Shown here one piece after another: positions 1-43,545 of a stretch of DNA of 54,077 nucleotides (position 1 is the first letter of the stretch; the number at the start of each line of letters is the position of its first letter). The DNA comes from Bacilli bacterium (GTDB taxonomy: Bacteria; Bacillota_I; Bacilli_A; RF39; UBA660). The stretch covers positions 1 through 54,077 of the forward strand of contig JAFVEF010000033.1 of the NCBI GenBank assembly GCA_017478105.1. The letters run 5' to 3'. Under the pieces are notes generated by a model. It saw only the letters and a program-made list of their open reading frames with translations, was not told where the DNA came from and did not search any database. Made by a program: the position numbers and the translations under genes.

Positions 1-18
1 ATGGTATAAAAAGCATAA

Positions 19-34
19 AGTTTCACGTGAAACA
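19..34. promoter_or_regulatory. parS-like site (candidate ParB/Spo0J binding), first of seven
   Basis: aGTTTCACGTGAAACa matches 15 of 16 positions of the palindromic parS TGTTTCACGTGAAACA. Copies lie at 19-34, 82-97 (one core mismatch), 145-160 (two), 207-222 (two), 269-284, 331-346 and 393-408. Confidence 0.7.
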
Positions 35-44
35 TAGATAAAAA

Positions 45-60
45 TATTTCCCGGGAAATA
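45..60. promoter_or_regulatory. NBS-like site (candidate Noc binding), first of seven
   Basis: TATTTCCCGGGAAATA contains the published B. subtilis Noc-binding consensus ATTTCCCGGGAAAT. Identical 16-mers lie at 45-60, 108-123, 171-186, 233-248, 295-310, 357-372 and 419-434. Confidence 0.7.
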
Positions 61-494
61 AATTAGTAGAGATAAAATTATAGTTTAACGTGAAACATAG
101 ATAAAAATATTTCCCGGGAAATAAAATAGTAACAATAAACTTAAAGTTTCACGCGGAACATGGATAAAATTATTTCCCGGGAAATAATTTGGTGGAAATA
201 AACTGAAGCTTCACGTGAAATATGGTTAAAAATATTTCCCGGGAAATAAAATGGTAAAAATAAACTGAAGTTTCACGTGAAACATAGATAAAAATATTTC
301 CCGGGAAATAAATTGGTAAAAATAAACTGAAGTTTCACGTGAAACATAGATAAAAATATTTCCCGGGAAATAAATTGGTAGAAATAAACTAAAGTTTCAC
401 GTGAAACATAGATAAAAATATTTCCCGGGAAATAATTTATACAGTTTGATATCATTGTGTATTTACTTTTTATTGATGTTATATTAAAATATGT

Positions 495-2772: not shown

Positions 2773-3066
2773 ATGAATATGCAAGCTATGTTAAAACAAG
2801 CTCAAGCTTTACAAAAAGATATGATGAAAGTAAAAGATGAAATAGATAAGACTGAATTTGTTGGAGAGAGTTCTTTTGTAAAAGTAACTTTATATGGAAC
2901 AAGAGAAGCTAAATCTGTTGAAATTAATTCTGATTCTTTGGATAAGGATGATGTGGAAGCATTACAAGACATGCTTGTTATTGCTATTAATGAGGCTAAT
3001 AAAAAAATTGATAAAGAAACAGAATCTAAGATGGGTAAATTTGGGAATATTCCTGGATTATTTTAG
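2773..3066 (+). CDS. ybaB: YbaB/EbfC family nucleoid-associated protein
   Basis: About 97 aa. N-terminus MQAMLKQAQALQKDM is typical of the family. Located between dnaX and recR. Confidence 0.9.
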   Translation: MNMQAMLKQAQALQKDMMKVKDEIDKTEFVGESSFVKVTLYGTREAKSVEINSDSLDKDDVEALQDMLVIAINEANKKIDKETESKMGKFGNIPGLF

Positions 3067-3074
3067 GTATTTTT

Positions 3075-3671
3075 ATGTATCCTGAAAGTATTAGGTGTTT
3101 AATTGAATCTTTTAAATGTTTACCAGGTATAGGTGAAAAAACAGCTGAAAGATTAGCTTTTTCTGTTTTGGATATGGAAGAAGAACAGGTTGAATTGTTT
3201 TCTAGTAGTTTGATGGATGTTATTAATAATGTTCATAAGTGTCCTATTTGTAATAGTTTAACTGATTCTGATATTTGCAGTATTTGTTCAGATCCAACAC
3301 GTGATAGTAAAATATTATGTATTGTTGAAGATTCTAAAAGTGTTTTCTTGTTTGAAAAATTAGGAATGTTTCATGGAAAATACCATGTAATTGATGGTTT
3401 AATCTCACCATTAGATGGTGTTAATCCTGAAGATATTGGCTTAAATAAACTATTAGATAGATTAAATGAGGAAAAGTTTGAAGAAATTGTGTTTGCCTTG
3501 AAACCTTCTATTGAAGGTGAAACTACCTCATTGTATATAAAGAAAATATTAGAGGGTATGGATATTAAGGTAACACGTTTAGCCAGTGGTTTACCTATAG
3601 GTGCTGATATAGAGTATGTTGATAGTTTAACGCTAGAAAGAGCAATTAATGATAGAAAGATTATTGAATAA
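3075..3671 (+). CDS. recR: Recombination protein RecR
   Basis: HhH LPGIGEKTAERLAF, C4 zinc finger CPICNS...CSIC, C-terminal Toprim. Confidence 0.95.
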   Translation: MYPESIRCLIESFKCLPGIGEKTAERLAFSVLDMEEEQVELFSSSLMDVINNVHKCPICNSLTDSDICSICSDPTRDSKILCIVEDSKSVFLFEKLGMFHGKYHVIDGLISPLDGVNPEDIGLNKLLDRLNEEKFEEIVFALKPSIEGETTSLYIKKILEGMDIKVTRLASGLPIGADIEYVDSLTLERAINDRKIIE

Positions 3672-7661: not shown

Positions 7662-10600
7662 TTGTTATGTTTGATTTTATAAATGTAATATTGAAAAAAG
7701 ACATGGGTATATATAATTTAACCGATGAATTTTTTTGTTTGTATCTCGATAAAATAAATAAAACTACTGATAATAATATATTAGTTGTTGTTAATAGTAT
7801 TTATGAAGCAAATAAATTATATAATTCGTTAAATAATTATAATGATAATACTTTGCTTTTTCCAATGGATGATTTTTTAACTAGTGAAGCTCTAGCAAGT
7901 TCTCCTGATTTAAAGATTACTAGACTTGAAACATTAAACGCTATTAGTAAAGAAAAAAATAGAATTATTATTACTAATCTTATGGGTTATTTGCGATATC
8001 TTCCTACAAGAAGTAATTATAAAAAGTTTATATTGTCATTAAAAATAGGAGATTGTATTTCTCCTAAAAGTATTGTGGAAAAATTTATTTCAATGGGTTA
8101 TTATCGTGATACTATTGTTAATAAAACGGGAGAAATTGGTGTTAGAGGATTTGTTGTTGATATATTTCCTATTGATGAGGAATATCCTATTAGAATTGAG
8201 TTTTTTGATGATGAAATAGAGTCAATTAGGTATTTTGATCCTGAAACACAAAAGTCTATAAAGAAAATTGATAGTGTTGAAATATATCCTTTTTTTGAAT
8301 TTCTTACTGATAAAAAAGTTGATGAAGATTTTTTTGGTAAACAAAAATATTATTCTGAATATGAAGAGGTATGTAATATATCTCAATTTATTGGAAATTG
8401 TATTACTTTTTTTAAGGATTATGACCAATTAAAAGTTAGTTATTTAAGTATTCTTGAAGAAATAGTTGAATTTAAGAAGAATAAGGATATTAACTATAAT
8501 GGAGATTATATATTTCATTTTAATGAGCTTAATGAAGAGTTTCCAATTTATTATATGTCTTTAAATAATATGTCTTCTGCTAATTATATAAATGAAATGG
8601 TTGATTATGATGTTAAGACTATTAGTAATTTTCACGAAGATCCTGAACAGATTAATTCTTTTATCAGAAAACAAATAAAGAATAAAAAGACTGTTATTAT
8701 TTGTTTAAAAAGATATCAGATACGTAGTATTATGAAATATCTTAATATGAAGGTTGTGGAAACTGATATTAATAATATTCAAGAGGGTTGTGTCAATTTA
8801 GTTGAATATGGAATTGGTCAAGGTTTTTTTTATAATAATTATGTTGTTTTAACGGCTTTTGAATTATTTAATGTGAAAGAAAAGGTTAAAAAGTATAAAA
8901 CAAATTATAGATATTCTTCTTCTATTAATGATGTTAATAGTTTGAATGTAGGGGATTATGTTGTACATAGTATTCATGGAATTGGTGTTTATAATGGTAT
9001 TAAAACTTTATCTTTACATGATATTACTAAGGATTATTTAGAGATTTTATATCAAGGTACTGATAAAATATATATACCAGTTGAAAAAATAGATATTCTT
9101 AGTAAATATTCTAGTCGTGAAGGGGTAATGCCTAAAATTAGTAAATTAGGTGGTACTGAATGGCAAAAAACTAAGGCTAGAGTTAAATCTAAAGTTACTG
9201 ATATGGCAGAAAAATTATTAAATCTATATGCTATTAGGGAATCAAAATCAGGATTTGCTTTTTCAAAGGATTGTGATATGCTTATTGATTTTGAAAATGA
9301 TTTTCCATATGAGTTAACAGTTGACCAAAGAAAGGCAATTGAACAAATAAAGGGTGATATGGAATTAGCTACTCCTATGGATAGGTTATTATGTGGAGAT
9401 GTTGGTTTTGGAAAAACCGAAGTTGCTTTTGTAGCAGCATTTAAAGCGATGCTTGATTCAAAGCAAGTATTATTTTTGTGTCCAACTACTATTTTATCTA
9501 CTCAGCATTATGATAATGCATTAGAAAGATTTAAAAATTTTCCTGTTAATATTGCTTTACTTAATAGATTTACTTCTTCTAAAGAAAAGAATAAGATTCT
9601 TGAAGGATTAAAAGAAGGTACTATTGATATGGTTATTGGTACACATAGATTATTATCTGATGATGTTGTTTTAAAGGATTTAGGACTTTTAATTATTGAT
9701 GAAGAGCAAAGATTTGGAGTTGCTCATAAGGAAAAAATTAAAGCTTATAAAACAAACGTAGATGTTCTTACTTTGACTGCAACACCTATTCCTAGAACTT
9801 TGCAGATGTCACTTGTTGGTATTAGAAGTTTATCTTTAATTGAAACTCCTCCAATAAATCGATATCCTGTTCAAACATATGTTGTTGAGGAAAATAAACA
9901 AATATTAAAAGATGCTATATATAAAGAATTATCAAGAGATGGACAGGTATTTATTCTTTATAATAGAGTTCAATCTATTCATGAATATGCAAGTAGAATT
10001 AAGAATATTGCTCCTGATGCTACTATTGGTATTGCTCATGGACAAATGAATAAGAATGATTTGGAATCAACTTTATATGATTTTATTAATCATAAATATG
10101 ATATTTTATTGTGTACTACTATAATTGAAACTGGTATTGATATTCCTAATGTTAATACATTGATAATATTAGATGCTGATAGATTTGGTTTAAGTCAACT
10201 TTATCAGATAAGAGGAAGGGTTGGTAGAAGCGATAAAATAGCTTATGCTTATTTAATGTATCAACCGTTTAAGAATTTAACTGAAAATGCTGTTAAGAGG
10301 TTAAATGTTATTAAAGAGTTTACGGAGCTTGGTAGTGGTTTTTCAATAGCAACAAGAGATTTATCTATTAGAGGTGCAGGTGATATTTTAGGAAATGAGC
10401 AAGCAGGCTTTATAGATAGTGTTGGTGTTGATTTATATTTAAAAATGCTTGATTGGGAAATCAAAAGACTAAATAATGAAAAGGTGGAAGAAGATATTAC
10501 TGATGATAGTAGTAAACCTTTAGTTAATGTTACTACTCATATAAGTGATGATTATGTTTCTGATGATGATTTAAAAATTGAAATTCATAAAAAGATTAAT

Positions 10601-11709: not shown

Positions 11710-11932
11710 GTATTAAATGTTGTGATGAAGAGCGATATATTTATTGTATTTTAGAGAACTCTTGGTTGGTGAAAAAGAGTATATGATTGTATATTGTATG
11801 GCTTTTGAACTGTTATATCGATATGTAGGTATAAACGTAGATAGGCGTTAACTATTTAAGTGTATAATAATTATTATAAAATAAGGTGGAACCGCGGAAT
11901 TATTTTCGTCCTTATGATATAGTAATTTTTTT
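11710..11932 (+). promoter_or_regulatory. T-box leader, Met specifier, upstream of metG
   Basis: Extended -10 TGCTATAAT at 11695-11703. Stem I has AGAGA and GGUGAAA distal motifs. The specifier candidate is AUG followed by A (tatATGAtt). T-box sequence AAGGUGGAACCGCGG lies at about 11883-11897, followed by a hairpin and U-run before the RBS. Confidence 0.8.
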
Positions 11933-11946
11933 TTGGAGGGATGATT

Positions 11947-13485
11947 ATGGATAAAAAGAAGTATTATATTTCAACAGCAATTGCTTATACATCAGGTAAG
12001 CCACATATTGGGAATACTTATGAAATTGTTTTAGCTGATGCGATTGCTAGATTTAAAAGATTACTTGGATATGATGTTTATTTTCAAACTGGGACTGATG
12101 AGCATGGTGAAAAAATTGAATTAAAAGCTAAAGAAGCTGGAGTGAGTCCACAAGAATTTGTTGATTCTAAAGCTAGTGAAATAAAGAGAATTTGGGATAT
12201 TATGAATACTAGTTATGATAAGTTTGTTAGAACAACTGATAAACATCATGAAGAGGTAGTACAACATATTTTTAAGTATATGTTTGATAAGGGAGATATT
12301 TATCTAGGTAAATATGAAGGATGGTATTGTACTCCAGATGAAGCTTTTTGGACAGATACGCAGGTTGTTCAAAATGATGATGGAGAGTATGTGTGTCCTG
12401 AGTGTGGAAGAAAAGTTGAAAAAAAATCTGAAGAAGCTTATTTCTTTAAATTGAGTAAATATCAAAAACAATTAGAAGAATATATAGAATCACATCCTGA
12501 TTTTATTCAACCTGTTTCTAGAAAGAATGAAATGATTAATAATTTTATTAAGCCTGGATTACAAGATTTGTGTGTTTCTAGAACTTCTTTTAAATGGGGA
12601 ATACCAGTTGATTTTGATCCTAAACATGTTGTTTATGTATGGTTAGATGCTTTAACTAATTATATTACTAATATTGGTTATGATGTTTCTAATTGTACTG
12701 ATGAGTTTAAATATAAGTGGCCTTGTGATTTGCATTTAATTGGAAAAGATATTATCCGTTTTCATACTATTTATTGGCCTTGCTTTTTAATGAGTTTAGA
12801 TATTGAATTACCTAAAATGGTATTTGGTCATCCATGGTTAATAATGAGTGATGGAAAGATGAGTAAATCTGTTGGTAATGTAGTTTATGCAGATGACTTA
12901 GTAGAAGAATTTGGTGTAGATGCAGTTAGATATTATTTTTTACATGAAATACCATTTTCTAATGATGGAGTCTTTTCTCGCGAATTACTTATTGAACGTA
13001 TAAATAGTGATTTAGCTAATATATTAGGTAATTTAGTTCAAAGAACTATTTCTATGGGAAACAAATACTTTGAAGGTAAGATTTCTAATAAGAATGTGTC
13101 TGATGAATTAGATGTAGAGTTTTTAAATTCTATAAATGGTTTATATGATAAAGTATGCTCAAGAATGGATAAATTAGAAATAAGTGATGCTATTAGTGAA
13201 ATATTTAGTTTATTAAGAGCAAGTAATAAATATATAGATGAGACAACACCTTGGGTTTTAGCAAAAGATGAATCTAAATTAGATAGATTAGAGACTGTTT
13301 TATATAATTTATTGGAAGCTATTAGAGTTTCTGCTTTATTATTAAAGCCTTTCTTGCCTGATACTAGTGATAGTATAATGAAGCAATTAAATAATTCTAA
13401 TGATGTATTTAAATTTGTTTCAGATAATAATTATAATTTAAATAATCCAACTCCATTATTTATGAGAATTGATGTTAATAAGTAA
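11947..13485 (+). CDS. metG: Methionine--tRNA ligase (short form, no C-terminal tRNA-binding domain)
   Basis: HIGH-type KPHIGN, KMSKS, CPECG zinc knuckle. ATG 11947 is better spaced from GGAGG than the ORF-track ATG 11941. Confidence 0.93.
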   Translation: MDKKKYYISTAIAYTSGKPHIGNTYEIVLADAIARFKRLLGYDVYFQTGTDEHGEKIELKAKEAGVSPQEFVDSKASEIKRIWDIMNTSYDKFVRTTDKHHEEVVQHIFKYMFDKGDIYLGKYEGWYCTPDEAFWTDTQVVQNDDGEYVCPECGRKVEKKSEEAYFFKLSKYQKQLEEYIESHPDFIQPVSRKNEMINNFIKPGLQDLCVSRTSFKWGIPVDFDPKHVVYVWLDALTNYITNIGYDVSNCTDEFKYKWPCDLHLIGKDIIRFHTIYWPCFLMSLDIELPKMVFGHPWLIMSDGKMSKSVGNVVYADDLVEEFGVDAVRYYFLHEIPFSNDGVFSRELLIERINSDLANILGNLVQRTISMGNKYFEGKISNKNVSDELDVEFLNSINGLYDKVCSRMDKLEISDAISEIFSLLRASNKYIDETTPWVLAKDESKLDRLETVLYNLLEAIRVSALLLKPFLPDTSDSIMKQLNNSNDVFKFVSDNNYNLNNPTPLFMRIDVNK

Positions 13486-20321: not shown

Positions 20322-23069
20322 ATGAAAAAAATAACAAAATGTATGTTGTTAGCATTTGCTTTATTAGTTGGATTTACTGTAAAAGCTAATGCAGTACAAG
20401 CAGCAACATTACACCAAGAAAATACATCATATTATTATGATAGATCACGAGGAGATGGAAGCGACCATCATTCGTGGTATTTTAAGCACTATACAATGGA
20501 CGGTGCAGTAGCATATTGTATAGAGCCAAATGTTCCTGAAGGTGTAACCTATAATCAGGGAGATTATTCAGCAACTGGATTATCAGATTCATATAAAGAA
20601 AGATTATTATTAATTGGATATTATGGATACACATATCCAGGACACCAAACTGAACAATATCGTATGGCTACTCAAGGTTTATTATGGGATACGATTATTG
20701 GTAATGGTGCTAATACTCAATTTACAACTGCTCGATGGGGTGCAGGAAATGTTATGGATATTTCAGCAGAAAAAGCCGAAATAAATAGACTAATAGAACA
20801 TCATTATGATGTACCATCATTTAATACAGGTGTTTACAAAGTTCAAGTTGGAGAAACCTTAACTTTAACAGATACCAATAATTTATTATCACAATTCGAT
20901 GTAAGTGTTAGTGGTGCTAATTATAATATAGATGGTAATACAATTACTATTGTTCCAACTCAAAGTGGAAAAATAGATGTATCATTTACTAAAAAAATGC
21001 CTTATACAACAAGTTATAAATTATTTGTTGGCGATGGAATACAAAACATGATGGTGCCAGGTATGGTAGATCCTGTTATTGCTAAAATTAGAATTAATAG
21101 TTATTCAAGTCCTGTTGAAATTGTTAAAAAAGATAAAGAGACAAATGAAAGTATTAGTCAAGGACAAGCAACCTTAAAATCTGCAAAATATGGAGTTTAC
21201 GAAACAAGTACAGGTAAATTAATTACAACAATTGAAACTGATGAAAATGGTTATGCTAAAAGTGAAGCAGTTTTAAATTGGAATGACTATTATCTTCAAG
21301 AAATAAGTCCAAGTGAAGGATATTTACTTGATAATACTAAATATCATTTTGATATGAGAGGTAAAGAAATAGAAAGAGTTGAAGTTTTTGAAACAGTAGT
21401 TAAGAATTATATTTCTATCTTAAAACAATATGAGTTTGTAGATGGAGAAACAACATTCTTAAATGCTGAAAAAAATATTACTTTTGAAATATTTTATCCT
21501 AATGGAGATAAATTTGATGAAATAACTACTGACAAAAACGGATATGCAACTATTAATTTACCTTATGGAGTATGGAAATTTCATCAAGTAAATACAACTA
21601 CTGGATTTGCGAAAATATATGATTTCTTTATTACTGTTGATTACAATAGTGAACAAGAACAATATTATAATATTTTAAATAATGCTTTATCAGCTTATTT
21701 ACAAGTATTTAAAGTAGATAGTGAAACTGGTAAAAAGATTGCACTAAAAGATACTACTTTTAAAATCTTTAATATTGATAAAAATCAATATGTATCACAA
21801 TTCGTTGGTGGTAAAGTTTATAGTGAATTTAAAACCGATGAAAATGGTACTTTTACAACCTATTTAAAATTGGAAAGTGGAAATTACAGACTAATAGAGG
21901 TATCTAGTCCTAAAGGGTATTTGTTAGATGAAAATGGAGTTGAATTTACTATTGGAAATGATACTCATTTTGCATATACAACTTATGGACCTTTTATCGC
22001 TTTGTATGTTAAAAACACACCAATAAAAGGTAAAATAGAAATATTTAAAAGTGGTGAGATTTTTACTGCAATAGATGATAGTTTTAATTATGATAATACA
22101 AAGTCATTAGAAGGTATTGTTTATAATATTTATGCTGATGAAGATATTAAATCATCTGATGGAAACCATTTATATTATGAAAAAGATGAACTTGTAGGAA
22201 CTATGACTACTAATAGCGATGGTTATGCAGTAAGTGCAGAATTGCCACTTGGAAAATATAGAGTTGTCGAATCAAAGACTAATGATAATTATGTTTTAGA
22301 TACAACAGAATATCATATAGAATTAGTTGAAAAGGATAATAAAACAAGAGTTGTTTATAATTCTAGTGAAATGACTAATGTTTTAAAGAAAGGAACATTA
22401 GAATTTACAAAAACTGATTTAGTTGATGGACAACCTATTCCATTTACAACTATACAAGTATTCACAGAAAATAATGAAAAAATATTTGAAGGTACAACAG
22501 ATGAAAATGGTAAGATTATCATCAAAAATTTAAGTGTTGGTCAAAAATACTATATTATCGAGAGTGAAGCTGCAACTGGTTATGTTATTACGGATGAAAT
22601 AGTATATTTTGAAATAAAAGACAATGGCGAAGTTGTAAAAGCAGAAATGAAAAACAAACCTATTATTGGTAAGTTAGAATTTACAAAGTTAGATTTTAGT
22701 ACAAATCAACCAATCCCTAACACATTAATAGAGATATATTCTGTTGATGATGAAGAAACACCTATTTTTTCTGGAAGAACTGATGACAATGGAATGATTA
22801 TCATTGATGAATTAAGATATGGAAAGTATTTCATTTTAGAAAAAGAAACTGGAACACCTGATTATATTTTAAATCCTGAAAGAATGTATTTTGAAGTTCT
22901 TGAAGATGGCGAAGTTGTTAAATGTACAATGGTTAATGAATTAGCACCAATAGAAGTACCAAATACAGGTGTTAGAGATTATTATATTATTATTCAAGTA
23001 ATTGGTAGTTTAATTGTATTTTCTGGAATAGGAGTGATGATCTATGCGAATAGAAAAAGAAAAAAATAA
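20322..23069 (+). CDS. Cell-wall-anchored adhesin with an N-terminal thioester-domain-like region, multiple SpaA/Cna-B type repeats and a VPNTG sorting signal
   Basis: Signal peptide ending VKANA. YCIE (Cys66, nt 20517-20519) and ATQGLLW (Gln118, nt 20673-20675) signatures. Repeated modules of the type LEFTK.D...PIP......DENG.I.I..L..G.Y...E. C-terminal VPNTG, hydrophobic stretch and NRKRKK tail. Confidence 0.8.
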   Translation: MKKITKCMLLAFALLVGFTVKANAVQAATLHQENTSYYYDRSRGDGSDHHSWYFKHYTMDGAVAYCIEPNVPEGVTYNQGDYSATGLSDSYKERLLLIGYYGYTYPGHQTEQYRMATQGLLWDTIIGNGANTQFTTARWGAGNVMDISAEKAEINRLIEHHYDVPSFNTGVYKVQVGETLTLTDTNNLLSQFDVSVSGANYNIDGNTITIVPTQSGKIDVSFTKKMPYTTSYKLFVGDGIQNMMVPGMVDPVIAKIRINSYSSPVEIVKKDKETNESISQGQATLKSAKYGVYETSTGKLITTIETDENGYAKSEAVLNWNDYYLQEISPSEGYLLDNTKYHFDMRGKEIERVEVFETVVKNYISILKQYEFVDGETTFLNAEKNITFEIFYPNGDKFDEITTDKNGYATINLPYGVWKFHQVNTTTGFAKIYDFFITVDYNSEQEQYYNILNNALSAYLQVFKVDSETGKKIALKDTTFKIFNIDKNQYVSQFVGGKVYSEFKTDENGTFTTYLKLESGNYRLIEVSSPKGYLLDENGVEFTIGNDTHFAYTTYGPFIALYVKNTPIKGKIEIFKSGEIFTAIDDSFNYDNTKSLEGIVYNIYADEDIKSSDGNHLYYEKDELVGTMTTNSDGYAVSAELPLGKYRVVESKTNDNYVLDTTEYHIELVEKDNKTRVVYNSSEMTNVLKKGTLEFTKTDLVDGQPIPFTTIQVFTENNEKIFEGTTDENGKIIIKNLSVGQKYYIIESEAATGYVITDEIVYFEIKDNGEVVKAEMKNKPIIGKLEFTKLDFSTNQPIPNTLIEIYSVDDEETPIFSGRTDDNGMIIIDELRYGKYFILEKETGTPDYILNPERMYFEVLEDGEVVKCTMVNELAPIEVPNTGVRDYYIIIQVIGSLIVFSGIGVMIYANRKRKK

Positions 23070-24496: not shown

Positions 24497-27400
24497 ATGG
24501 CAACAACAGTAACAGTAGTTAATGCCTTATACAAAGATACGATTAAAGAAGTATCTCAAGATGCAACAAATTGGCAATCTTTTTTAAGAACTGCATCAAT
24601 GAATTATACTAATAGTTTTAGTGAGCAATTACTTATATATGCTCAAAGACCTAATGCTATTAGTTGTACTGATATAGATACTTGGAATGACACTTATAAA
24701 AGATTAGTTAATCGTGGCACTCCTGGAATAGGTCTTTTAACAGAGTTTAATGGTAAACCTAGAATAAGATATGTATGGGGATTAAATGATACTCATAGTA
24801 TTTATGGAAGAAAAGGTAAAAAACTAAAAATATGGAAAGTACCTAAAGTGTATGAAGATCAAGTTATTGAATCACTTGAAAATAAATTTGGTGAATTAAA
24901 TAACAAAGATAATTTAGTTAATGCAATTAAATCAGTTGCAACAAATCTTATGGAAGATAATTACAATGATTATTTAGACGATTTAATTTCAAATAAGTTT
25001 GATACTAGATTAGAAAATATTTCAAATGATGTTATAGAAAAGTATTATAAAAAAATACTAGAGAATAGTATTGCATATATGATTATTAACAGGAGTGGTA
25101 TAAATCCTACTCCTTTTTTTAATGATACTGATTTTATAGAAATACCAATATTTCAAGATATTGAAAGTATTGCAAGATTAGGTACTGCTGCAAGTGATAT
25201 TGCAGAGATGGGTATTAGAGAGATTTATGTATCTCTTAAAAATATACGAATAGCAGAAATTGAAAAAATTCGTACATTTGATAAAAGTAATCAGATAGTT
25301 TATGATGATAATGAAAAAAGCAGAAATGCTGAAAGGAGCGATAATTATGAACATGACTTACACTCAAGTGGGCAATTACCTACTACCGAATTTAGTTACG
25401 ATCGAGGAAGAACAATTCAAAATGGGCAAGTATGGGACAATGAGGCTTCAATACTTGAAAGAGAACAAGAAAGGGACATACGAAGCAATGTTGATGAAAG
25501 GAACTCTACAAACACATTTGAAAGAGATAGAAACATCAGCACAAACGAGAGTATCGACAATAATGGACGAGATGAAAAAGAAACTCAATATAACGGAAGA
25601 ATTGAAGTCAGTCAATCAAATGAAATGGCTTGGGATGATGAACAATATCAAGAATCAAGCCGAAGAAATAATGATGAGAGAACTAATCTTCAACTAGATA
25701 GTAATGGGAATACCGAAAATGGTATTCTTTTTTCAAATGAAGATAGATATGATTATAAAGTTGGCGACAAAGTTTTTATTGGATTAGATGAATATGAGAT
25801 AACAAAGATTGGGTTATTTGATATTGAATTATATGATCCAAATGCTCCACTCTTTGGTAGAACAATGAGTGTTATTGACTTTGAAACTAAATTAAAAGAA
25901 AATCCTGCTAATGAACATTTAAAAGTAAAAAATGTTAAAAATGAAGTTATAACTGAAACTATAACAAGTGTTGATTCATTAGATGAGGAACATTCATTTA
26001 CAGTAGCAAGAGTTATTGATAATCAACATTGTGTTGAACTTCATTATTTTAATAATAAAGCTACAGTAGAAATTGGCACTAAAGTTAGAGATGATTATTG
26101 GGAAAGCATAGTTGAAGATGCAGACTGGTTTAATAAAGATTTAAGCGACAATGAGATTATAGATAAATTAAGTGAGATATTTACAGAAAATTTTGAAAAT
26201 ACTATTTCAAAAGAAACTGATAATTATTATGGCGAATATAACGATGAAATAGATTTAATTGACCATATATTATCTAGTCATAAAATAGATGATATTATTA
26301 TGGACTTTAACGAAGATGGTATTATCATTGCTAATGATGATGAGGGAAATGTTTGGGAAGGAAAAGAATTTTACGACTTTTTATTCAATGACTTATTTGA
26401 TTATAATGAAAACGGAACAGTTGATTTAATAGACAATAAAGACTTTGAGAGATTGAAAGAATATCGTAAAAAGTATGATATTACTGAACAAAAAGAAATA
26501 GTACCGACTGAAAAAGAAAATATAGTATCAACTACTAATAACTCCTCTCAACTATCGTTATTTATACCAAAAGAACAAGAACTAGCAGATAGAATTGTAG
26601 AAGAATTTAATGCTTTAGATACAAAATATAAAGGAACTTTTTATGTTTCTTCCATTGAATTAGAAAAATGGAATCATATTAAATCAAAGAAAAGAAACCT
26701 TACTATTTCTATTAAAAGTAGTGAGTGTACAGGATATAATGAAACTAGCTTTACTCAATTCAATAGTGATAAAACTTCCGAAGTAACTTTAAGAGAAAGT
26801 ACAGAAATAAGTAAGTTTTTAAATTATTTAAGTGAAGATAAAGATTTTTCTATTACCATTACACCAGATAGTCTATTAGTTTTCTATCATAACTTTGATG
26901 AAAAGCAATTAGATTTAAGTATTGGTAAAGATAATGTTTTATCTAGTATAAGCGATAAAGATAATATAGAAATAATAGATAATCCAAAATTAGAAATACC
27001 AAAGGTTATAAAGAAGCTAAGAAATAGAGTTATTAACTATGTACTTCATCCTGAAATACCATACGAGGAACGAATCAATTATAAAATAGTTGATGATAAT
27101 ATTGGTGTTGGACAACCTAGAGAGAGATTTAGAAACAATATAAATGCTATTAAAACATTAAAGCAATTGCAAAATGAAGATAGATATGCAACTCCTGAAG
27201 AACAAGAAATATTATCTAAATATGTTGGTTGGGGTGGCTTATCTCAAGCATTTAAAAAAGATAGTGATTGGGCTACTGAATATCAAGAATTAGGTACTCT
27301 TTTAGGTTTTGATAGTGATGAGTATAATAAAGCAATGGCGTCAGTTAATACTGCTTTCTATACACCTCCTATTGTTATAAAATCAATATATAAAGCATTA

Positions 27401-30400
27401 GAAAACATGGGACTTCAAAAAGGTAATATTTTAGAGCCAAGTTGTGGTATTGGAAACTTTATAGGATTACTACCAAATAATGACAATTTAAAGATATATG
27501 GTGTTGAATTAGATGATTTAAGTGGTAATATAGCTAGGCAATTATATCAAAAGTCATCTATTGCGATTAAAGGGTTTGAAGATGTAGAATATCCAGACTC
27601 TTTTTTTGATGTTGCAATAGGAAATGTACCATTTGGTGAGTTTCCAGTATATGACAAAAAATATGATAAACACCATTTTTTGATACACGATTATTTCTTT
27701 GCTAAAACTATTGATAAAGTAAGACCAGGTGGTGTTATTGCACTAATAACTTCTAGTGGAACAATGGATAAGAAAAGCGAAGATGTTAGAAAGTATATTG
27801 CTGCACGAGCAAATCTTTTAGGTGCAATTAGATTACCTAACAACACCTTTAAAGATGCTGCAGGTACTAAAGTAACAAGTGATATTTTATTCTTACAAAA
27901 AAGAGATTCCATAACTGATATAATGCCTGATTGGGTGCATTTAGATAATAGCGAAGATGGAATTGTAATGAACAAGTATTTTGTAGATAATCCTAATATG
28001 ATTTTAGGAAAAATGGAAACTACAACACATTTTGATATGACTACTTGCACTCCATTTGAAGATAAAGATTTAAGTGAATTATTAGATAATGCAATATCTA
28101 ATATTCATGCTGAAATAAAAGATTATCAATTAGAAGAATTAACCGAAGAAGATAATTCAATCGAAGCAGATTTAAATGTTAAAAACTTTTCTTATACAGT
28201 TATTGATGATAAAGTATATTATCGTGAAAATAGTAGAATGTATCCACAAGAACTATCAGTAACTGCTGAAAACAGAGTTAAAGGGTTAATTGAATTAAGA
28301 GATACTACAAGAGAACTAATTGATTTACAATTAGAAGATATGCCTGATGAAGATATAGAAAAACAACAAGCAAAATTAAATACCTTATATGATAATTTCA
28401 CTAAAAAATATGGACTAATAAATAGTCGTGCAAATGCTTCTGCTTTTAATGGTGATAATAGTTATTATTTGCTTTGTTCATTAGAGATATTAGATGAGAA
28501 TGGTAATTTATTAAGAAAAGCTGATATGTTCTCTAAAAGAACAATTATGGCACATAAAGCACCACAAAAAATAGAAAGTTCTAATGATGCTTTAATCGTG
28601 TCTATTGGTGAAAAAGCAATGGTTGATTTAGATTATATGAGTGAAATATCTCACAAATCAAAAGATGAACTTGTAAGCGATTTAGAGGGTATTATATTTA
28701 AAATACCTAACGAGGATAGATATGTTACTGCTGATGAATATTTAAGTGGAGACATTCGTGAAAAGATTAAGGAAGCAGAACTTGCAAATGAAACTAATCC
28801 TATTTATGATATTAACCTTAAATATTTATATGAAGCAAAACCTGAAGATTTGAATGCCAGTGAAATTAGTGTAAGACTTGGAACTACTTGGATACCGCCT
28901 GAAGATTATGAAAAATTCATGTTTGAATTGTTTGATACCGACTATTACTCTAAAAGAAAAATTAAAATAAATTATTCTGATATTACAAATGAATGGTCTA
29001 TTGAAAATAAAAGTTATGATAGATATAACGAAAAAGTTAGATCTACCTATGGAACTAAAAGAATTAATGGTTACAAGATATTTGAAGAAACTTTAAATCT
29101 CCGAGATGTTAAGATATATGACTATTTTGAAGATGAAGAAGGCAAAAAGAAACGAGTTTTAAATGGTAAAGAAACTGCTATTGCACAGGGAAAACAAGAA
29201 CAAATAAAGCAAGCATTTCAAGATTGGATATGGTCTGATCCTGATAGAAGAAACAGACTAGAAAAGAAATATAATGAATTATTTAATGCTATTAAACCTA
29301 GAGAATATGATGGTAGTAATATTATATTTGATGGAATAAATCCTGAAATATCATTAAGAGAGCATCAAATAAATGCTATTGCTAGAATACTTTATGGTGG
29401 AAATACCTTACTTGCTCACGAAGTTGGTGCAGGTAAAACTTTTGAAATGGTTGCAGCTGCAATGGAAAGTAAAAGATTAGGATTATGTAATAAATCTTTA
29501 TTTGTAGTACCTAATCATATTGTAGAACAATTTGCTAGTGAGTTCTTACAATTATATCCTAGTGCGAATATTTTAGTAGCAACAAAAAAGGATTTTGAAA
29601 CTGCTAATCGTAAAAAGTTTTGTTCCCGTATTGCTACAGGAGAATATGATGCAGTAATAATTGGTCATTCTCAATTTGAAAAGATTCCAATGTCAGTAGA
29701 AAGACAAATGACATTATTAGAAAAAGAAATAAGTGAGATAATGGATGCCATTGATAATGGACAAATGTCTGGTGCATCATTTACTGTAAAACAACTTATG
29801 AAAACAAAAAAACAACTAGAAACAAAACTACAAAGACTTAATGATAGTTCAAGAAAAGATGATAATGTTGTTACCTTTGAACAATTAGGCGTTGATAGAT
29901 TATTTGTTGATGAAGCACATTATTATAAGAATTTATTTCTTTATACCAAGATGAGTAATGTTAGTGGAATTGCTCAAACTGAAGCACAAAAGAGTTCAGA
30001 TTTATATATGAAATGTAAATATTTAGATGAAATAACTGGAGGAAAAGGAATTGTATTTGCAACTGGAACTCCAATATCTAATTCAATGGTTGAGTTATAT
30101 ACAATGCAGAGATATTTACAAACAAATACACTATATAAGTTAGGATTACAAAACTTTGATGCTTGGGCTTCTACTTTTGGGGAAACTACTACTGCAATAG
30201 AACTTGCTCCAGAAGGAACAGGTTATCGTGCTAAAACTAGATTTGCAAAGTTTTATAATTTACCAGAATTAATATCTGTATTTAAAGAAGTCGCAGATAT
30301 AAAAACTGCTGATATGTTAGACTTGCCAGTACCAAAAGCAAACTATGAAAACATTGTAGTAGCACCTAGTGAGATACAAGAAAAAATGGTTGAAGAATTA

Positions 30401-31816
30401 TCAGAACGAGCTGAAAAAATTAGAGGTGGTGGTGTTGATCCACACGAAGATAATATGCTTAAAATTACAAATGATGGTAAAAAATTAGCATTAGACCAAA
30501 GACTAATAAATGATTTATTACCTGATGAAGAAAATGGAAAAGTAAGCACTTGTGCTAATAATATTTATAAATTTTATAAAGATTATGATGATATAAAAGC
30601 GACACAATTAGTATTCTGTGATTTATCAACACCAAAAGATGATGGCTCTTTTAGTGTCTATAATGACATTAAAAACAAGTTAATAGATAAAGGTATTCCT
30701 GGTGAAGAAATAGCTTTTATTCATGATGCTGATAATGAGATTAAGAAAAAAGAATTGTTTTCAAAAGTTCGTAAAGGACAAGTAAGAGTTTTAATTGGCT
30801 CTACTCAAAAAATGGGTGCTGGAACTAACTGCCAAGATAGACTTATTGCTATTCACGATTTAGATTGCCCATGGCGACCTGCTGATTTACAACAACGAGC
30901 AGGACGAATTGTAAGACAAGGAAATCAAAACAAAGAAGTATTTATTTTTAGATATGTAACTGAAAAAACATTTGATGCTTACCTTTACCAATTAGTAGAA
31001 AATAAGCAAAAGTTTATATCACAAATAATGACTTCTAAAACACCACTTCGTACTGCTAGTGATGTTGATGAAACTGTTTTATCCTATGCTGAAATAAAAG
31101 CATTAGCTGCAGGAAATCCTCTTATTTTAGAAAAAACTGAACTTGATGCAAAGGTATCTAAACTAAAATTATTAAAACAAAGTCATTTAAGTCAGATATA
31201 TGAACTTGAAGATAAAGTTATGAAACAATATCCACGAGATATTAAAATAACTGAAAATAATATCAAAGATATTCAAGAAGATATATCACTTTTAGACAAG
31301 AATAAAACAGATGATTTTAGTTATATTATTCTAAATGGTATAACCTATGATGAAAGAAAAAATGCTGGTACAGCACTACTTGAAATAATCAAAAATAATC
31401 CTACAATAGATAATGAGATACCTATTGGTAATTATTTAGGATTTGATTTGTCTTTGGGATTTAATTTCTTACAAAAAACATTTTATCTTGATGTAAAAAA
31501 CAAACATTCTTATATTGTTGAACTTGGATCTGATCCTAGTGGTAATATAATTCGTATTGATAATCAATTAAGTAAATTACCTGATTATTTAACGAATAAT
31601 CAAGAAAAATTAGAAACATTAAAGCAACAATTTGAAATTGCAAAACAAGAAGTTCATAAACCTTTTCCACAAGAACAAGAGTTAAAAGATGCTATGAAAC
31701 GATTAAGAGAAGTTGACACTGCTTTAAATCTTGATGAAAAAGTACCTGAAATATTAGAAATGTCTGATGATGATAATGCTCCAAGTCAAATGTGCAAAGA
31801 TGAATATGAAAGGTAA
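24497..31816 (+). CDS. Polyvalent conjugative-element protein with an ArdC-N-like ssDNA-binding module, a disordered linker, unassigned domains, an N6-adenine DNA methyltransferase and an SNF2/DEAD-like helicase
   Basis: ArdC-N-like LLIYAQRPNA...W....R.V.RGTPGIGLL. MTase motif I EPSCGIGNF (about 27434-27460) and motif IV GNVPFG (27621-27638). Helicase motif I HEVGAGKTF (29417-29443), motif II DEAHYYKN (29908-29931) and motif VI QQRAGRIVRQGN (30889-30925). Confidence 0.85.
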   Translation: MATTVTVVNALYKDTIKEVSQDATNWQSFLRTASMNYTNSFSEQLLIYAQRPNAISCTDIDTWNDTYKRLVNRGTPGIGLLTEFNGKPRIRYVWGLNDTHSIYGRKGKKLKIWKVPKVYEDQVIESLENKFGELNNKDNLVNAIKSVATNLMEDNYNDYLDDLISNKFDTRLENISNDVIEKYYKKILENSIAYMIINRSGINPTPFFNDTDFIEIPIFQDIESIARLGTAASDIAEMGIREIYVSLKNIRIAEIEKIRTFDKSNQIVYDDNEKSRNAERSDNYEHDLHSSGQLPTTEFSYDRGRTIQNGQVWDNEASILEREQERDIRSNVDERNSTNTFERDRNISTNESIDNNGRDEKETQYNGRIEVSQSNEMAWDDEQYQESSRRNNDERTNLQLDSNGNTENGILFSNEDRYDYKVGDKVFIGLDEYEITKIGLFDIELYDPNAPLFGRTMSVIDFETKLKENPANEHLKVKNVKNEVITETITSVDSLDEEHSFTVARVIDNQHCVELHYFNNKATVEIGTKVRDDYWESIVEDADWFNKDLSDNEIIDKLSEIFTENFENTISKETDNYYGEYNDEIDLIDHILSSHKIDDIIMDFNEDGIIIANDDEGNVWEGKEFYDFLFNDLFDYNENGTVDLIDNKDFERLKEYRKKYDITEQKEIVPTEKENIVSTTNNSSQLSLFIPKEQELADRIVEEFNALDTKYKGTFYVSSIELEKWNHIKSKKRNLTISIKSSECTGYNETSFTQFNSDKTSEVTLRESTEISKFLNYLSEDKDFSITITPDSLLVFYHNFDEKQLDLSIGKDNVLSSISDKDNIEIIDNPKLEIPKVIKKLRNRVINYVLHPEIPYEERINYKIVDDNIGVGQPRERFRNNINAIKTLKQLQNEDRYATPEEQEILSKYVGWGGLSQAFKKDSDWATEYQELGTLLGFDSDEYNKAMASVNTAFYTPPIVIKSIYKALENMGLQKGNILEPSCGIGNFIGLLPNNDNLKIYGVELDDLSGNIARQLYQKSSIAIKGFEDVEYPDSFFDVAIGNVPFGEFPVYDKKYDKHHFLIHDYFFAKTIDKVRPGGVIALITSSGTMDKKSEDVRKYIAARANLLGAIRLPNNTFKDAAGTKVTSDILFLQKRDSITDIMPDWVHLDNSEDGIVMNKYFVDNPNMILGKMETTTHFDMTTCTPFEDKDLSELLDNAISNIHAEIKDYQLEELTEEDNSIEADLNVKNFSYTVIDDKVYYRENSRMYPQELSVTAENRVKGLIELRDTTRELIDLQLEDMPDEDIEKQQAKLNTLYDNFTKKYGLINSRANASAFNGDNSYYLLCSLEILDENGNLLRKADMFSKRTIMAHKAPQKIESSNDALIVSIGEKAMVDLDYMSEISHKSKDELVSDLEGIIFKIPNEDRYVTADEYLSGDIREKIKEAELANETNPIYDINLKYLYEAKPEDLNASEISVRLGTTWIPPEDYEKFMFELFDTDYYSKRKIKINYSDITNEWSIENKSYDRYNEKVRSTYGTKRINGYKIFEETLNLRDVKIYDYFEDEEGKKKRVLNGKETAIAQGKQEQIKQAFQDWIWSDPDRRNRLEKKYNELFNAIKPREYDGSNIIFDGINPEISLREHQINAIARILYGGNTLLAHEVGAGKTFEMVAAAMESKRLGLCNKSLFVVPNHIVEQFASEFLQLYPSANILVATKKDFETANRKKFCSRIATGEYDAVIIGHSQFEKIPMSVERQMTLLEKEISEIMDAIDNGQMSGASFTVKQLMKTKKQLETKLQRLNDSSRKDDNVVTFEQLGVDRLFVDEAHYYKNLFLYTKMSNVSGIAQTEAQKSSDLYMKCKYLDEITGGKGIVFATGTPISNSMVELYTMQRYLQTNTLYKLGLQNFDAWASTFGETTTAIELAPEGTGYRAKTRFAKFYNLPELISVFKEVADIKTADMLDLPVPKANYENIVVAPSEIQEKMVEELSERAEKIRGGGVDPHEDNMLKITNDGKKLALDQRLINDLLPDEENGKVSTCANNIYKFYKDYDDIKATQLVFCDLSTPKDDGSFSVYNDIKNKLIDKGIPGEEIAFIHDADNEIKKKELFSKVRKGQVRVLIGSTQKMGAGTNCQDRLIAIHDLDCPWRPADLQQRAGRIVRQGNQNKEVFIFRYVTEKTFDAYLYQLVENKQKFISQIMTSKTPLRTASDVDETVLSYAEIKALAAGNPLILEKTELDAKVSKLKLLKQSHLSQIYELEDKVMKQYPRDIKITENNIKDIQEDISLLDKNKTDDFSYIILNGITYDERKNAGTALLEIIKNNPTIDNEIPIGNYLGFDLSLGFNFLQKTFYLDVKNKHSYIVELGSDPSGNIIRIDNQLSKLPDYLTNNQEKLETLKQQFEIAKQEVHKPFPQEQELKDAMKRLREVDTALNLDEKVPEILEMSDDDNAPSQMCKDEYER
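25347..25697 (+). CDS. tnpV: TnpV-like protein encoded in the +1 frame inside the polyvalent-protein ORF
   Basis: AAAGGAG (25332-25338) lies 8 nt before ATG 25347. The translation MNMTYTQVGNYLLPNL...MGKYG.MRLQYLKE...THLKEIE.SAQ...ITEELK..NQMKWLGMMNNIKNQAEEIMMRELIF fits the TnpV (Tn4451-type) family pattern from memory. Confidence 0.6.
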   Translation: MNMTYTQVGNYLLPNLVTIEEEQFKMGKYGTMRLQYLKENKKGTYEAMLMKGTLQTHLKEIETSAQTRVSTIMDEMKKKLNITEELKSVNQMKWLGMMNNIKNQAEEIMMRELIFN

Positions 31817-34871: not shown

Positions 34872-36200
34872 ATGGCAACAACAGGAATATGGAAAATCGA
34901 AAAAAGATTAGATCATGTTATAGATTATGTATCAAATCCTGAAAAGACTACTAAAGCAAATGAAAGTTATCAAGAACTTCATCAGTTTAGTGAGTATGAT
35001 AACCTTAACTTTAATACTGAAGAAGGATGTTATGTTTCTGGAATTAATTGCTTACCTGATGATGCTTATCAAGATATGATGGATACCAAAGCAATTTGGA
35101 AAAAGAAAGATGGTGTTTTAGGTTATCATGCTTTTCAATCTTTTGTTGAAGGAGAAGTAACTGCAGATAAAGCTCATTTAATTGGTATGAAACTTGCAGA
35201 AGAAATGTGGGGCGATAGATTTGAAGTTATCGTTACTACTCATATAAATACTAATCATATTCATAATCATTTTGTTATAAACTCTGTTTCATTTAAAGAT
35301 GGTAAAAAGTTTAATAATTGTAATGAGAACTATGCTTTATTAAGACATTTATCTGATTCTTTATGTCAGGAATATGGATTATCTGTTTTAGATAATAAGA
35401 AAATAAAAGTTAATAAAGTTAATTATGAAAACTTTTATCAAAGATATGTAAAAAAGAACACATATCATTCTATTGCAAAACAAGATTTAGATCGTGCCAT
35501 TGGTATGGCATATTCTTATAAAGATTTTGAAAACATTATGATTAAGATGGGATATGAAATAAAAAATAGATATGGAAAACTTTCAATAAATAGACAACCT
35601 TATAAAAAGAATATTCGTATTGAGAGAGCATTTGGTAGTGATTATTCTATCGAATCTATTGAGAAAAGAATTGAACTAGAAACTGCTACACGAGTACCTT
35701 TTATTGAAGCATATAATCCAGCAAATCAAAAGAAAACTTTTGAGGAGCATAAGAAAGAAAAAGCACATGGTATTTATGGTTTATATAAATATTATTGTTA
35801 TATATTAGGTGTTTATACTAAAGACTATCCAAATAAAATATTAACTCCAGCTATGAGAGTTGAAGTAAAAAAGTTAGATCAAATATCAAAGCAAACACAG
35901 TTGTTGGTAAATCATAAGATTGAAACATACCAGCAACTTTTATTTTATAAAGATACTATAAATCAAGATATTAAAGAATTATCTTCAAAGAGAGAAAATT
36001 TATGGCGAAAGATAAAACGAACTAAAGATGACAACGAAAAAATATTAATTCGTCAAGAAATTGATACTCTTACAAGACTGTTAGAGCCAAAACGAAAGGA
36101 GGTGGTCTTATGTGAAGGAATAGAAAAAAGACTTGGTGTTGTTAAAGAAAACATCAAAGAGTTCGAAGAAGAAAAAGAGAAAGGAGAAATGAAAAGATGA
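34872..36200 (+). CDS. Relaxase/mobilization nuclease (MOBP-like, histidine-triad type)
   Basis: N-terminal relaxase domain with THINTNHIHNHFVINSV. Follows mobC. C-terminal coiled-coil. Confidence 0.85.
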   Translation: MATTGIWKIEKRLDHVIDYVSNPEKTTKANESYQELHQFSEYDNLNFNTEEGCYVSGINCLPDDAYQDMMDTKAIWKKKDGVLGYHAFQSFVEGEVTADKAHLIGMKLAEEMWGDRFEVIVTTHINTNHIHNHFVINSVSFKDGKKFNNCNENYALLRHLSDSLCQEYGLSVLDNKKIKVNKVNYENFYQRYVKKNTYHSIAKQDLDRAIGMAYSYKDFENIMIKMGYEIKNRYGKLSINRQPYKKNIRIERAFGSDYSIESIEKRIELETATRVPFIEAYNPANQKKTFEEHKKEKAHGIYGLYKYYCYILGVYTKDYPNKILTPAMRVEVKKLDQISKQTQLLVNHKIETYQQLLFYKDTINQDIKELSSKRENLWRKIKRTKDDNEKILIRQEIDTLTRLLEPKRKEVVLCEGIEKRLGVVKENIKEFEEEKEKGEMKR

Positions 36201-37848: not shown

Positions 37849-38187
37849 ATGAAAGATAAAATAAGATTTGATTTAACCGATAGCGAAAGAACTATAATTA
37901 TTAAATCACTAAATATGTTAAGAAATTATTTATCAGCACAAGAAAGATCAACAGATTCTGTTGATGAAATAATTTTAAAAGTTAGTGATAATCATAAGGT
38001 AGAATTAGATACCTTTGATTCAAAGATAATTATAAATGCTCTAAATACCATGAGATATAAATTAAAAAATGATAATCAGCCTAGAAACGAAGTCAATGAT
38101 ATATTGCTTAAAATGATTGATGAAACTGATAGTAAAAAAAAACTAATTTTAAGGAAGACAACGAGAGGTAATGGTAGAAGATTCTAA
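37849..38187 (+). CDS. Small hypothetical protein with an internal duplication
   Basis: Two similar halves (IIIKSLNMLRNYL....VDEIILKV and IIINALNTMRYKL....VNDILLKM). Confidence 0.5.
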   Translation: MKDKIRFDLTDSERTIIIKSLNMLRNYLSAQERSTDSVDEIILKVSDNHKVELDTFDSKIIINALNTMRYKLKNDNQPRNEVNDILLKMIDETDSKKKLILRKTTRGNGRRF

Positions 38188-43183: not shown

Positions 43184-43545
43184 TGGAAGTTAAAATAAAT
43201 CGTGAGATTAGAAATTATACCGAGAGTGTATTCTTTGGACTGTCTTTAAGACAGTTCATTTTTTCTCTCTTGGCATGTGGAATGGCAGTAGGTTTATATT
43301 TCTTAACAAGTGATTATTTTAATAAAGAAATAGTTTCTTGGATTTGTATTTTAGGTGCTTTACCTTTTGCAGGACTTGGCTTTTTTAAATACAATGGTAT
43401 GCCATTAGAGGAGTTTATAAAAGCCTTTTTAGTGTCAGAGGTATTAACACCTAGAGAGTTAAAGTTTGAGTCAGAAAACATCTATTATGAGGCGATAAAG
43501 CCTTATTTAGATAACAAAGAAAAGGAGGAATTAAAAAGAAAATGA
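43183..43545 (+). CDS. PrgI-family (VirB3-like) membrane protein
   Basis: About 120 aa with two adjacent TM segments. Located immediately upstream of virB4 and overlapping it. Confidence 0.7.
   Translation: MEVKINREIRNYTESVFFGLSLRQFIFSLLACGMAVGLYFLTSDYFNKEIVSWICILGALPFAGLGFFKYNGMPLEEFIKAFLVSEVLTPRELKFESENIYYEAIKPYLDNKEKEELKRK

Follow-up and report, generated by a model that had tools for sequence, protein, structure and literature searches.

The 54,077-nt stretch of DNA analyzed here (contig JAFVEF010000033.1 of assembly GCA_017478105.1 from a Bacilli bacterium; hereafter the window) begins within a tandem array in which palindromes that resemble parS, the site of the chromosome segregation protein ParB/Spo0J, alternate with palindromes identical to the Noc-binding site (NBS), which is recognized by the ParB paralog Noc. 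With a probability of about 0.68, this array constitutes a composite centromere, or loading array, on the chromosome near the replication origin, where two paralogous clamp proteins that depend on CTP would be loaded. This reading is carried by the arrangement of the sites, their position close to dnaA, the recurrence of both site types at the same position in related species, a helical phase that is peculiar to neighboring parS-NBS pairs, and the presence in a close relative of genes for both paralogs with the appropriate specificity residues.

Architecture of the array

A single array was detected at positions 18-435 of the window by Tandem Repeats Finder (period 62, 6.7 copies, 88% matches). 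Together with the sequence itself, this result places the 3′ part of the array, ~7 of ~18 units, at 1-435. Each unit of 62-63 bp comprises a parS-like 16-mer, 10 nt, an NBS 16-mer and 20-21 A-rich nt. A search with TGTTTCACGTGAAACA that allowed up to three mismatches located seven parS-like 16-mers, at 19-34, 82-97, 145-160, 207-222, 269-284, 331-346 and 393-408. The parS-like 16-mer, AGTTTCACGTGAAACA, agrees with the consensus TGTTNCACGTGAAACA at 15 of 16 positions. The 14-bp core GTTTCACGTGAAAC is perfect in four of the seven copies (those starting at 19, 269, 331 and 393). The remaining three are degenerate, with one core change in AGTTTAACGTGAAACA (start 82) and two each in AGTTTCACGCGGAACA (start 145) and AGCTTCACGTGAAATA (start 207). 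The NBS 16-mer TATTTCCCGGGAAATA was recovered by motif search at 45-60, 108-123, 171-186, 233-248, 295-310, 357-372 and 419-434, the last being the final site of the array. All seven copies are identical (16/16) and all have the palindrome (T)ATTTCCCGGGAAAT(A) that characterizes the site. No further parS-like or NBS 16-mer was found in the 54-kb window with up to three mismatches allowed. Shuffled sequence is expected to yield 0.2-0.3 matches per motif, and seven matches were reached in none of 100 shuffles.

The 10 nt that separate the parS-like from the NBS 16-mer put the centers of the two sites 26 bp apart, and the next parS-like center follows 36-37 bp further on. These spacings had been reported in a preliminary description made from the letters of the window, as had the presence of at least seven tandem units of 62-63 bp, the identity of the seven NBS 16-mers, and the four perfect parS-like cores with one or two substitutions in the others. 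The motif and tandem repeat searches agree with that account. The parS-like site of the description likewise is real, but its left flanking base is A and not T.

Location and copy number near the replication origin

The preliminary description also had recognized that the array continues past the start of the window. Its full extent was evident on a metagenome contig (L001) that was found via the exact TadA protein (start 587). Downstream of the array, this contig agrees with the window at 100% identity for 10.6 kb, and it was therefore taken to represent the same genome. The full array on L001 spans positions 8744-9849, ~1.1 kb with 17.7 units (~18), in which 16 of 18 NBS copies are perfect. 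The gene order on the contig is dnaA-dnaN-(ComK-family gene)-recF-gyrB-gyrA, followed by the array and then by ffs-tadA-dnaX-ybaB-recR. Thus, the array fills the gap between gyrA and ffs, ~9 kb from dnaA, beginning ~7.5 kb past the dnaA stop codon. It therefore has the origin-proximal location typical of parS, and it is chromosomal since gyrA stands on one side and ffs-tadA-dnaX on the other.

In the window, the downstream edge of the gap is marked by ffs, the gene for the small signal recognition particle RNA (493-573, + strand; Rfam RF00169, 52.7 bits). It is followed on the + strand by tadA (587-1030), dnaX (1068-2759), ybaB (about 2773-3066) and recR (3075-3671), which form the conserved flank that marks the syntenic position in other genomes. 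The real start of tadA is 587, from which the exact protein match extends, and not the start at 560 of the mechanically called open reading frame (ORF). The Rfam match and the gene order on L001 corroborate the earlier suggestion that ffs-tadA-dnaX-recR is a flank of origin-proximal type.

The array of the window's genome recurs in contigs from 6-7 independent samples, and L002-L007, which are contigs of independent samples, end inside the array like the window itself. Nine units of the same array sequence are present in L127, which comes from a relative with 92.5% identity. The difference between ~18 units on L001 and nine on L127 indicates that the copy number either is variable or is partly collapsed by short-read assembly. 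Comparison of the 25 units on these two contigs revealed that the NBS is changed in only two units and that single parS positions vary in one to three units, the NBS-to-parS spacer being by far the most variable part of the array. Neither parS nor NBS was found elsewhere in ~40 kb of neighboring origin-region DNA of the window's genome and its close relatives (L001, L127-L129). The NBS are stacked in one gap, with no other in the ~90 kb around oriC that was covered.

The plasmid centromeres that are built as tandem arrays, F sopC among them, the start of the window within the array, the breakage of several contigs at the same place, and a region resembling an integrative and conjugative element (ICE) at ~19.5-48 kb of the window all would suit an array that belongs to a mobile element, as its centromere or otherwise, or one that arose when a low-complexity repeat was misassembled. 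Either origin is highly improbable given that core replication genes flank the array on both sides, that synteny extends to ~113 species among the matches listed, and that at least 17 kb of housekeeping genes lie between the array and the ICE-like region. The parS/NBS pattern had no match in 2.9 million viral contigs, the array had no blastn match in 72,556 plasmids, and it is not carried on a plasmid, phage or ICE with its own parAB adjacent. The mobile-element centromere that had been envisaged just upstream of the window is not borne out, as the upstream DNA is dnaA-dnaN-comK-recF-gyrB-gyrA. An assembly artefact is contradicted by the sharing of the array among independent samples and by the occurrence of a relative's array, 13 units of 83 bp, in a circular chromosome assembled from long reads with metaFlye.

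Two further identities were examined for the repeats. A replication-origin or DnaA-titration cluster was ruled out as the array contains no DnaA box. A promoter or terminator array was unsupported: no terminators were found in the array, and promoter-like matches were weak and inconsistent.

Conservation of paired sites in related species

Genomes representing 185,579 species, one genome per species, were scanned with the pattern TTTCACGTGAAA-N6-36-TTTCCCGGGAAA. Close parS-NBS pairs were carried by at least 119 genome stretches. Among the matches listed, all but ~4 were from low-GC (23-37%) uncultured gut metagenome-assembled genomes (MAGs), ~113 genomes in total, that are labeled as Bacilli, Erysipelotrichaceae, Mycoplasma or Tenericutes and whose hosts include humans, rabbits, ruminants, chickens, horses and mice. 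The clade probably belongs to GTDB order RF39. When the proteins of L001 were used in tblastn searches, the cluster was placed between gyrA and tadA, or in a few cases between tadA and dnaX, in ~115 of these stretches. Flanking-gene identity to L001 among the matches listed was 52-91% for GyrA and 36-73% for DnaX. The sites are concentrated in the gap itself: at 83 loci with both flanks, the gyrA-tadA gaps contained 449 sites in 59.7 kb compared to 155 sites in 579 kb of surroundings.

Tandem arrays in which the unit includes both palindromes are present in ~30 species among the matches listed. Their spacers are unrelated, and the tandem periods across species are 62, 68, 72, 76, 83, 84 and 98 bp and beyond, up to 393 bp. 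The related array of 13 × 83 bp is located on the 1.31-Mb circular metaFlye chromosome OZ006981.1 (L102), which demonstrates that such arrays are not short-read artefacts. Both site types also were present in the gap at three loci that were reached via DnaA and so were chosen blind to the sites (L127, L130 and L131). In cross-species logos, information is limited to the palindromes and 1-4 flanking bases. The parS logo is ATGTTTCACGTGAAACAT, and the positions that discriminate parS from NBS have an information content close to 2 bits.

Other arrangements of the sites were noted in relatives. The gap at 19018-19935 of L130 has four parS-NBS pairs whose members are 42-51 bp apart. These pairs alternate in orientation (P-N, N-P, P-N, N-P) with ~190-270 bp between them, unlike the head-to-tail array of the window. 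An NBS with at most one mismatch recurs inside dnaX in 25 related loci, mostly at ~codons 342-394 (examples are L011 3556, L025 2299, L049 1961, L084 2562 and L090 1850, with 20 more loci), and an NBS is found at ybaB codon 28 in three loci. The dnaX gene of the window itself lacks the recurrent NBS.

Helical phasing of parS-NBS pairs

The spacing between sites was analyzed for neighboring heterotypic sites 18-48 bp apart, a range without phase bias in sampling. Center-to-center distances of close parS-NBS pairs peak at 25-27, 35-37 and 45-48 bp across species. In 124 unrelated spacer families, the vector strength at a period of 10.5 bp was 0.33 with a mean phase of ~160 degrees, and the observed vector strength was not attained in any of 20,000 draws when spacings were taken uniformly from 18-48 bp. 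Periodicity was not detected in homotypic parS-parS distances nor in heterotypic distances of >48 bp. Overall, the helical phasing of close parS-NBS pairs is maintained across species. The window spacings of 26 and 36-37 bp correspond to about 2.5 and 3.5 helical turns. Successive steps of 2.5 and 3.5 turns should bring all of the parS dyads to one side of the helix and the NBS dyads roughly to the other, from which we infer that the two site types are presented on approximately opposite faces of the DNA. The unit of about six helical turns that was described initially is a property of this lineage. It is not universal, as the range of periods from 62 to 393 bp elsewhere rules out a fixed six-turn unit.

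The restriction of phasing to heterotypic close spacings, in 124 unrelated spacer families, bears directly on the chief rival explanation, namely that the array is an ordinary multi-site parS centromere in which the NBS are independent neighbors that were co-amplified by unit duplication without functional coupling. Plain tandem duplication would yield the 1:1 alternation seen in this lineage, yet ~30 species among the matches listed independently carry two-site tandem units, and the NBS is the best conserved element of the array of the window's genome. Although the genome scan itself chose for adjacency, the loci chosen blind to the sites hold both types in the same gap. Independent neighbors would be consistent with the enrichment of Noc sites near the origin in any case, with the NBS beyond the cluster, including those in dnaX at 25 loci, and with the excess of parS over NBS in the gaps of many relatives (orders such as PNPPPPPP). 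When these observations are considered together, the absence of coupling is unlikely.

Predicted partner proteins

Searches with the GERRxRA motif and tblastn detected no ParB-family gene in the window, nor any in the flanking 8 kb of the low-GC loci. The sole ParB-family match in the flank searches was at an unrelated high-GC Oscillospiraceae locus (L040). Candidate partners of the array were identified instead on the opposite side of oriC in relatives, which was reached via DnaA neighbors and has the order rpmH-rnpA-yidC-jag-mnmE-mnmG-rsmG-noc-soj-spo0J. The arrangement rsmG-noc-soj-spo0J beside oriC, which is classical for Firmicutes, is present in L128, L129 and L131. The 92.5%-identical relative (L127, L128) that shares the array unit encodes noc, spo0J and the ParA gene soj. 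The search for ParB and Noc genes that the preliminary description had proposed was thus successful for both in this relative, but not on the contig of the window's own genome.

The Spo0J-like protein (L128) is 299 amino acids long, and the closest solved structure is that of B. subtilis Spo0J (1.5e-62). The Noc-like protein (P0121, 417 amino acids, L128 10001-11254) instead matches Geobacillus Noc best (1.3e-64, compared to 3.4e-50 for Spo0J). The residues that determine specificity for NBS or parS have been established by experiment: Q173 reads A1 and R201 reads C6 of the NBS (Jalal et al., PMC7383237), a lysine at either 179 or 184 must be present as a permissive residue for NBS preference, and the combination of R173 and G201 is of parS type (PMC7383237). 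The Spo0J-like protein reads GKSRSH...SMGHAR, corresponding to R173 and G201 in Caulobacter numbering, which is the parS type. The Noc-like protein reads GKSQSAVANKIRLLSLP...SERHAR, corresponding to Q173, K179, S184 and R201, which is the NBS type. As these residues match the established determinants (PMC7383237), each protein is predicted to read one palindrome of the array, the Spo0J-like protein parS and the Noc-like protein NBS. The pattern is general for the Noc-like family: among 150 representative clusters at 50% identity, 94 were readable at the four specificity positions and nearly all of these were Q-K-[S/N/T/A]-R.

The retention of both paralogs across the clade, with clean residues R173/G201 in one and Q173/K179/R201 in the other, also disfavors the alternative that a single protein, either a relaxed ParB-family member or an unrelated regulator, reads both palindromes on a homotypic platform with two site variants. 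The parS and NBS sequences differ at only two positions per half-site, and some engineered intermediates between ParB and Noc are promiscuous (PMC7383237). Moreover, the Noc-like protein is atypical in having S at position 184. Nevertheless, the promiscuous variants reported all have R173 and none has Q173 (PMC7383237), and across species parS and NBS remain sharply separate in sequence, with ~2 bits at the discriminating positions. A single promiscuous reader accordingly is improbable.

The N-terminus of the Noc-like protein falls at approximately residue 24 of Geobacillus Noc, and so the protein lacks both alpha1, which is the membrane-targeting amphipathic helix, and the conserved helix alpha2. 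The role of the N-terminal helix of Noc in membrane targeting has been described previously (PMC8429893). The short N-terminus is a family trait: all of 120 close Noc-like homologs begin only 4-6 residues ahead of a conserved DE(V/I)V segment, and the PNRFQPR motif starts at residue 14-20 in nearly all of the 150 representative clusters, whose lengths range from 221 to 982 amino acids with a median of 470. Classical membrane tethering by this protein is unlikely in the absence of the membrane-targeting helix, which weakens the earlier proposal that the array couples segregation to tethering at the membrane. An insertion of ~170 residues separates the DNA-binding domain from the ParB/Noc-like C-terminal domain. 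When a relocated membrane helix was sought in the AlphaFold model, the linker (residues 205-370) was of low confidence and disordered with very short helices only. Short conserved motifs are scattered in the linker (AFINDNP..PT, NYGKVTIAPPEGEE, KFINYGE, DLDSFLN, TPAEKIVK and DYF). These motifs look like partner-binding peptides and suggest that the Noc-like protein may act in partner recruitment.

In the closest relatives, the noc-like gene is separated from rsmG by an inserted ORF of 872 amino acids (L128 7282-9900, which is the same as L127 928-3546). This ORF has no Pfam or NCBIfam match and is missing at that position in L129 and L131.

A model for the proposed composite centromere

The preliminary description had suggested that ParB and Noc are recruited together to a composite locus, and this proposal gains from the position ~9 kb from dnaA, from the paralogs in the relative and from their specificity residues. 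In the model favored here, dimers of ParB/Spo0J would nucleate on the parS palindromes and dimers of the Noc-type paralog would do so on the NBS palindromes, at a distance of 26 bp. Both proteins then would bind CTP, close as clamps and slide to the flanking DNA, with the outcome that one origin domain would be densely loaded with ParB and the Noc-type protein. Spacings of approximately half-integer numbers of turns would set neighboring dimers of the two proteins on roughly opposite faces of the DNA, which would permit simultaneous occupancy. The cellular role of ParB would comprise its usual interaction with ParA (Soj) and probably SMC loading for origin segregation. The Noc-type protein more likely would work through its long motif-bearing linker than by classical membrane tethering.

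A stronger version of the model, which is tentative and has somewhat less than an even chance of being correct, is that a clade of gut Bacilli with reduced genomes has made the ParB/Noc pair into a two-clamp centromere. In this case, a Noc descendant would have dispensed with membrane binding and acquired a long linker with conserved motifs, the two proteins would co-assemble on phased, interleaved sites at one origin-proximal locus, and the clamps would affect each other's loading, retention or partner recruitment. A two-clamp centromere of this type would be a novel architecture among bacterial centromeres, and its Noc protein would define a functional class that is new for this family. Cooperation of the paralogs near the origin, or a function in replication control, has precedents: Spo0J and Noc together block premature Z rings in B. 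subtilis (PMC6852036), and replication initiation is controlled by Noc in S. aureus (PMC5540599).

A number of observations weigh against the composite centromere. First, the spacing statistic was corrected only partly for shared ancestry, by collapsing to spacer families, and the scan chose close parS-NBS pairs, which biases both the prevalence and the 1:1 stoichiometry. Indeed, parS exceeds NBS in the gaps of many species (for example, in the order PNPPPPPPPP). Second, the copy numbers of 18 and nine units derive from short-read assemblies. Third, noc and spo0J are known from the relative (L127/L128) and not from contigs of the window's genome, and the pairing of sites with proteins in these uncultured organisms is a prediction from sequence. 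Fourth, the Noc-like protein departs from Noc in several respects: it has S and not K at position 184, the hallmark N-terminal amphipathic helix is absent, and its score of 293.1 bits on the NCBIfam model TIGR04285 (nucleoid_noc) is below the cutoff of 315, although above the 244.8 bits of the Spo0J-like paralog.

If the composite centromere holds, the array would provide a natural system for studying how a single DNA region is shared, or competed for, by two paralogous CTP clamps. It also would offer a route to the function of Noc when the protein is unable to bind the membrane and would give insight into origin segregation in gut Bacilli with reduced genomes. On a practical level, arrays of this kind disrupt short-read assembly beside oriC in these MAGs.

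Other features of the window and its relatives

The ICE-like block at 19500-48000 of the window does not adjoin the array. It includes genes for a surface protein with SpaA and thioester domains (20322-23069), a 2439-amino-acid SNF2/ResIII helicase protein (24497-31816), a MobA/VirD2 relaxase (34872-36200), a VirD4/TraG coupling protein (38171-39997) and a VirB4-like ATPase (43542-45857). A T-box leader (Rfam RF00230, 114 bits) precedes the methionyl-tRNA synthetase gene (11941-13485), the region as a whole occupying 11713-13485. The ComK-family gene between dnaN and recF (L001 2618-3064) encodes 148 amino acids and also is present in L127, L129-L131 and many other loci. It is clade-wide, with 36-75% identity, and its insertion into the dnaA-dnaN-recF-gyrB block is unusual.

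Comparison with known systems

ParB and Noc are the textbook case of how, after duplication, a DNA-binding protein came to recognize a different site and to serve a different function, and their sites are separate and dispersed in model organisms. The array resembles chromosomal parS, such as that of B. subtilis, in that its 16-bp palindrome fits TGTTNCACGTGAAACA at 15 of 16 positions and is origin-proximal, and in that the lineage encodes a Spo0J-type ParB and ParA beside oriC. In contrast to the single parS sites that are spread over tens to hundreds of kilobases, 18 copies are gathered here in 1.1 kb, each parS is paired with an NBS, and no parS is found within spo0J in the relatives examined. 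In its NBS 16-mer, TATTTCCCGGGAAATA, the array reproduces exactly the consensus published for B. subtilis and S. aureus, and the predicted partner of this site has Q173, K179 and R201 and occupies the position of the noc gene. However, known NBS are tens of single sites that are spread over the origin-proximal chromosome (PMC8429893, PMC5540599), whereas here a single intergenic gap contains at least 18 copies, which are interleaved with parS. The predicted partner differs from classical Noc in lacking the membrane-targeting helix and K184 and in possessing a long disordered linker.

A literature search for natural alternating or adjacent parS/NBS arrays returned only engineered labeling systems, in which parS/NBS arrays mark loci in live cells (mParSpot/ParSite; PMC11109969, PMC11798528). 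Those arrays are artificial and are used in eukaryotic cells, and they do not represent natural interleaved sites that serve a function in the cell. The array described here would also provide a compact dual-label DNA cassette of natural origin. The site types and protein families themselves are already known. The interleaved and phased layout, the tandem amplification, the conserved position and the link to a Noc subfamily that has a long linker and no membrane-targeting helix appear to be undescribed so far. The F plasmid centromere sopC consists of twelve 43-bp repeats, each with a 16-bp palindrome that is bound by SopB. The array shares with centromeres of this type the head-to-tail repeats, the palindromic ParB-family site in each repeat and the high local density of sites. 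It differs from them in that the par genes are not beside the array but across oriC, ~20 kb away, and in that the array is chromosomal, is conserved in position and has two palindromes per unit for two paralogs.

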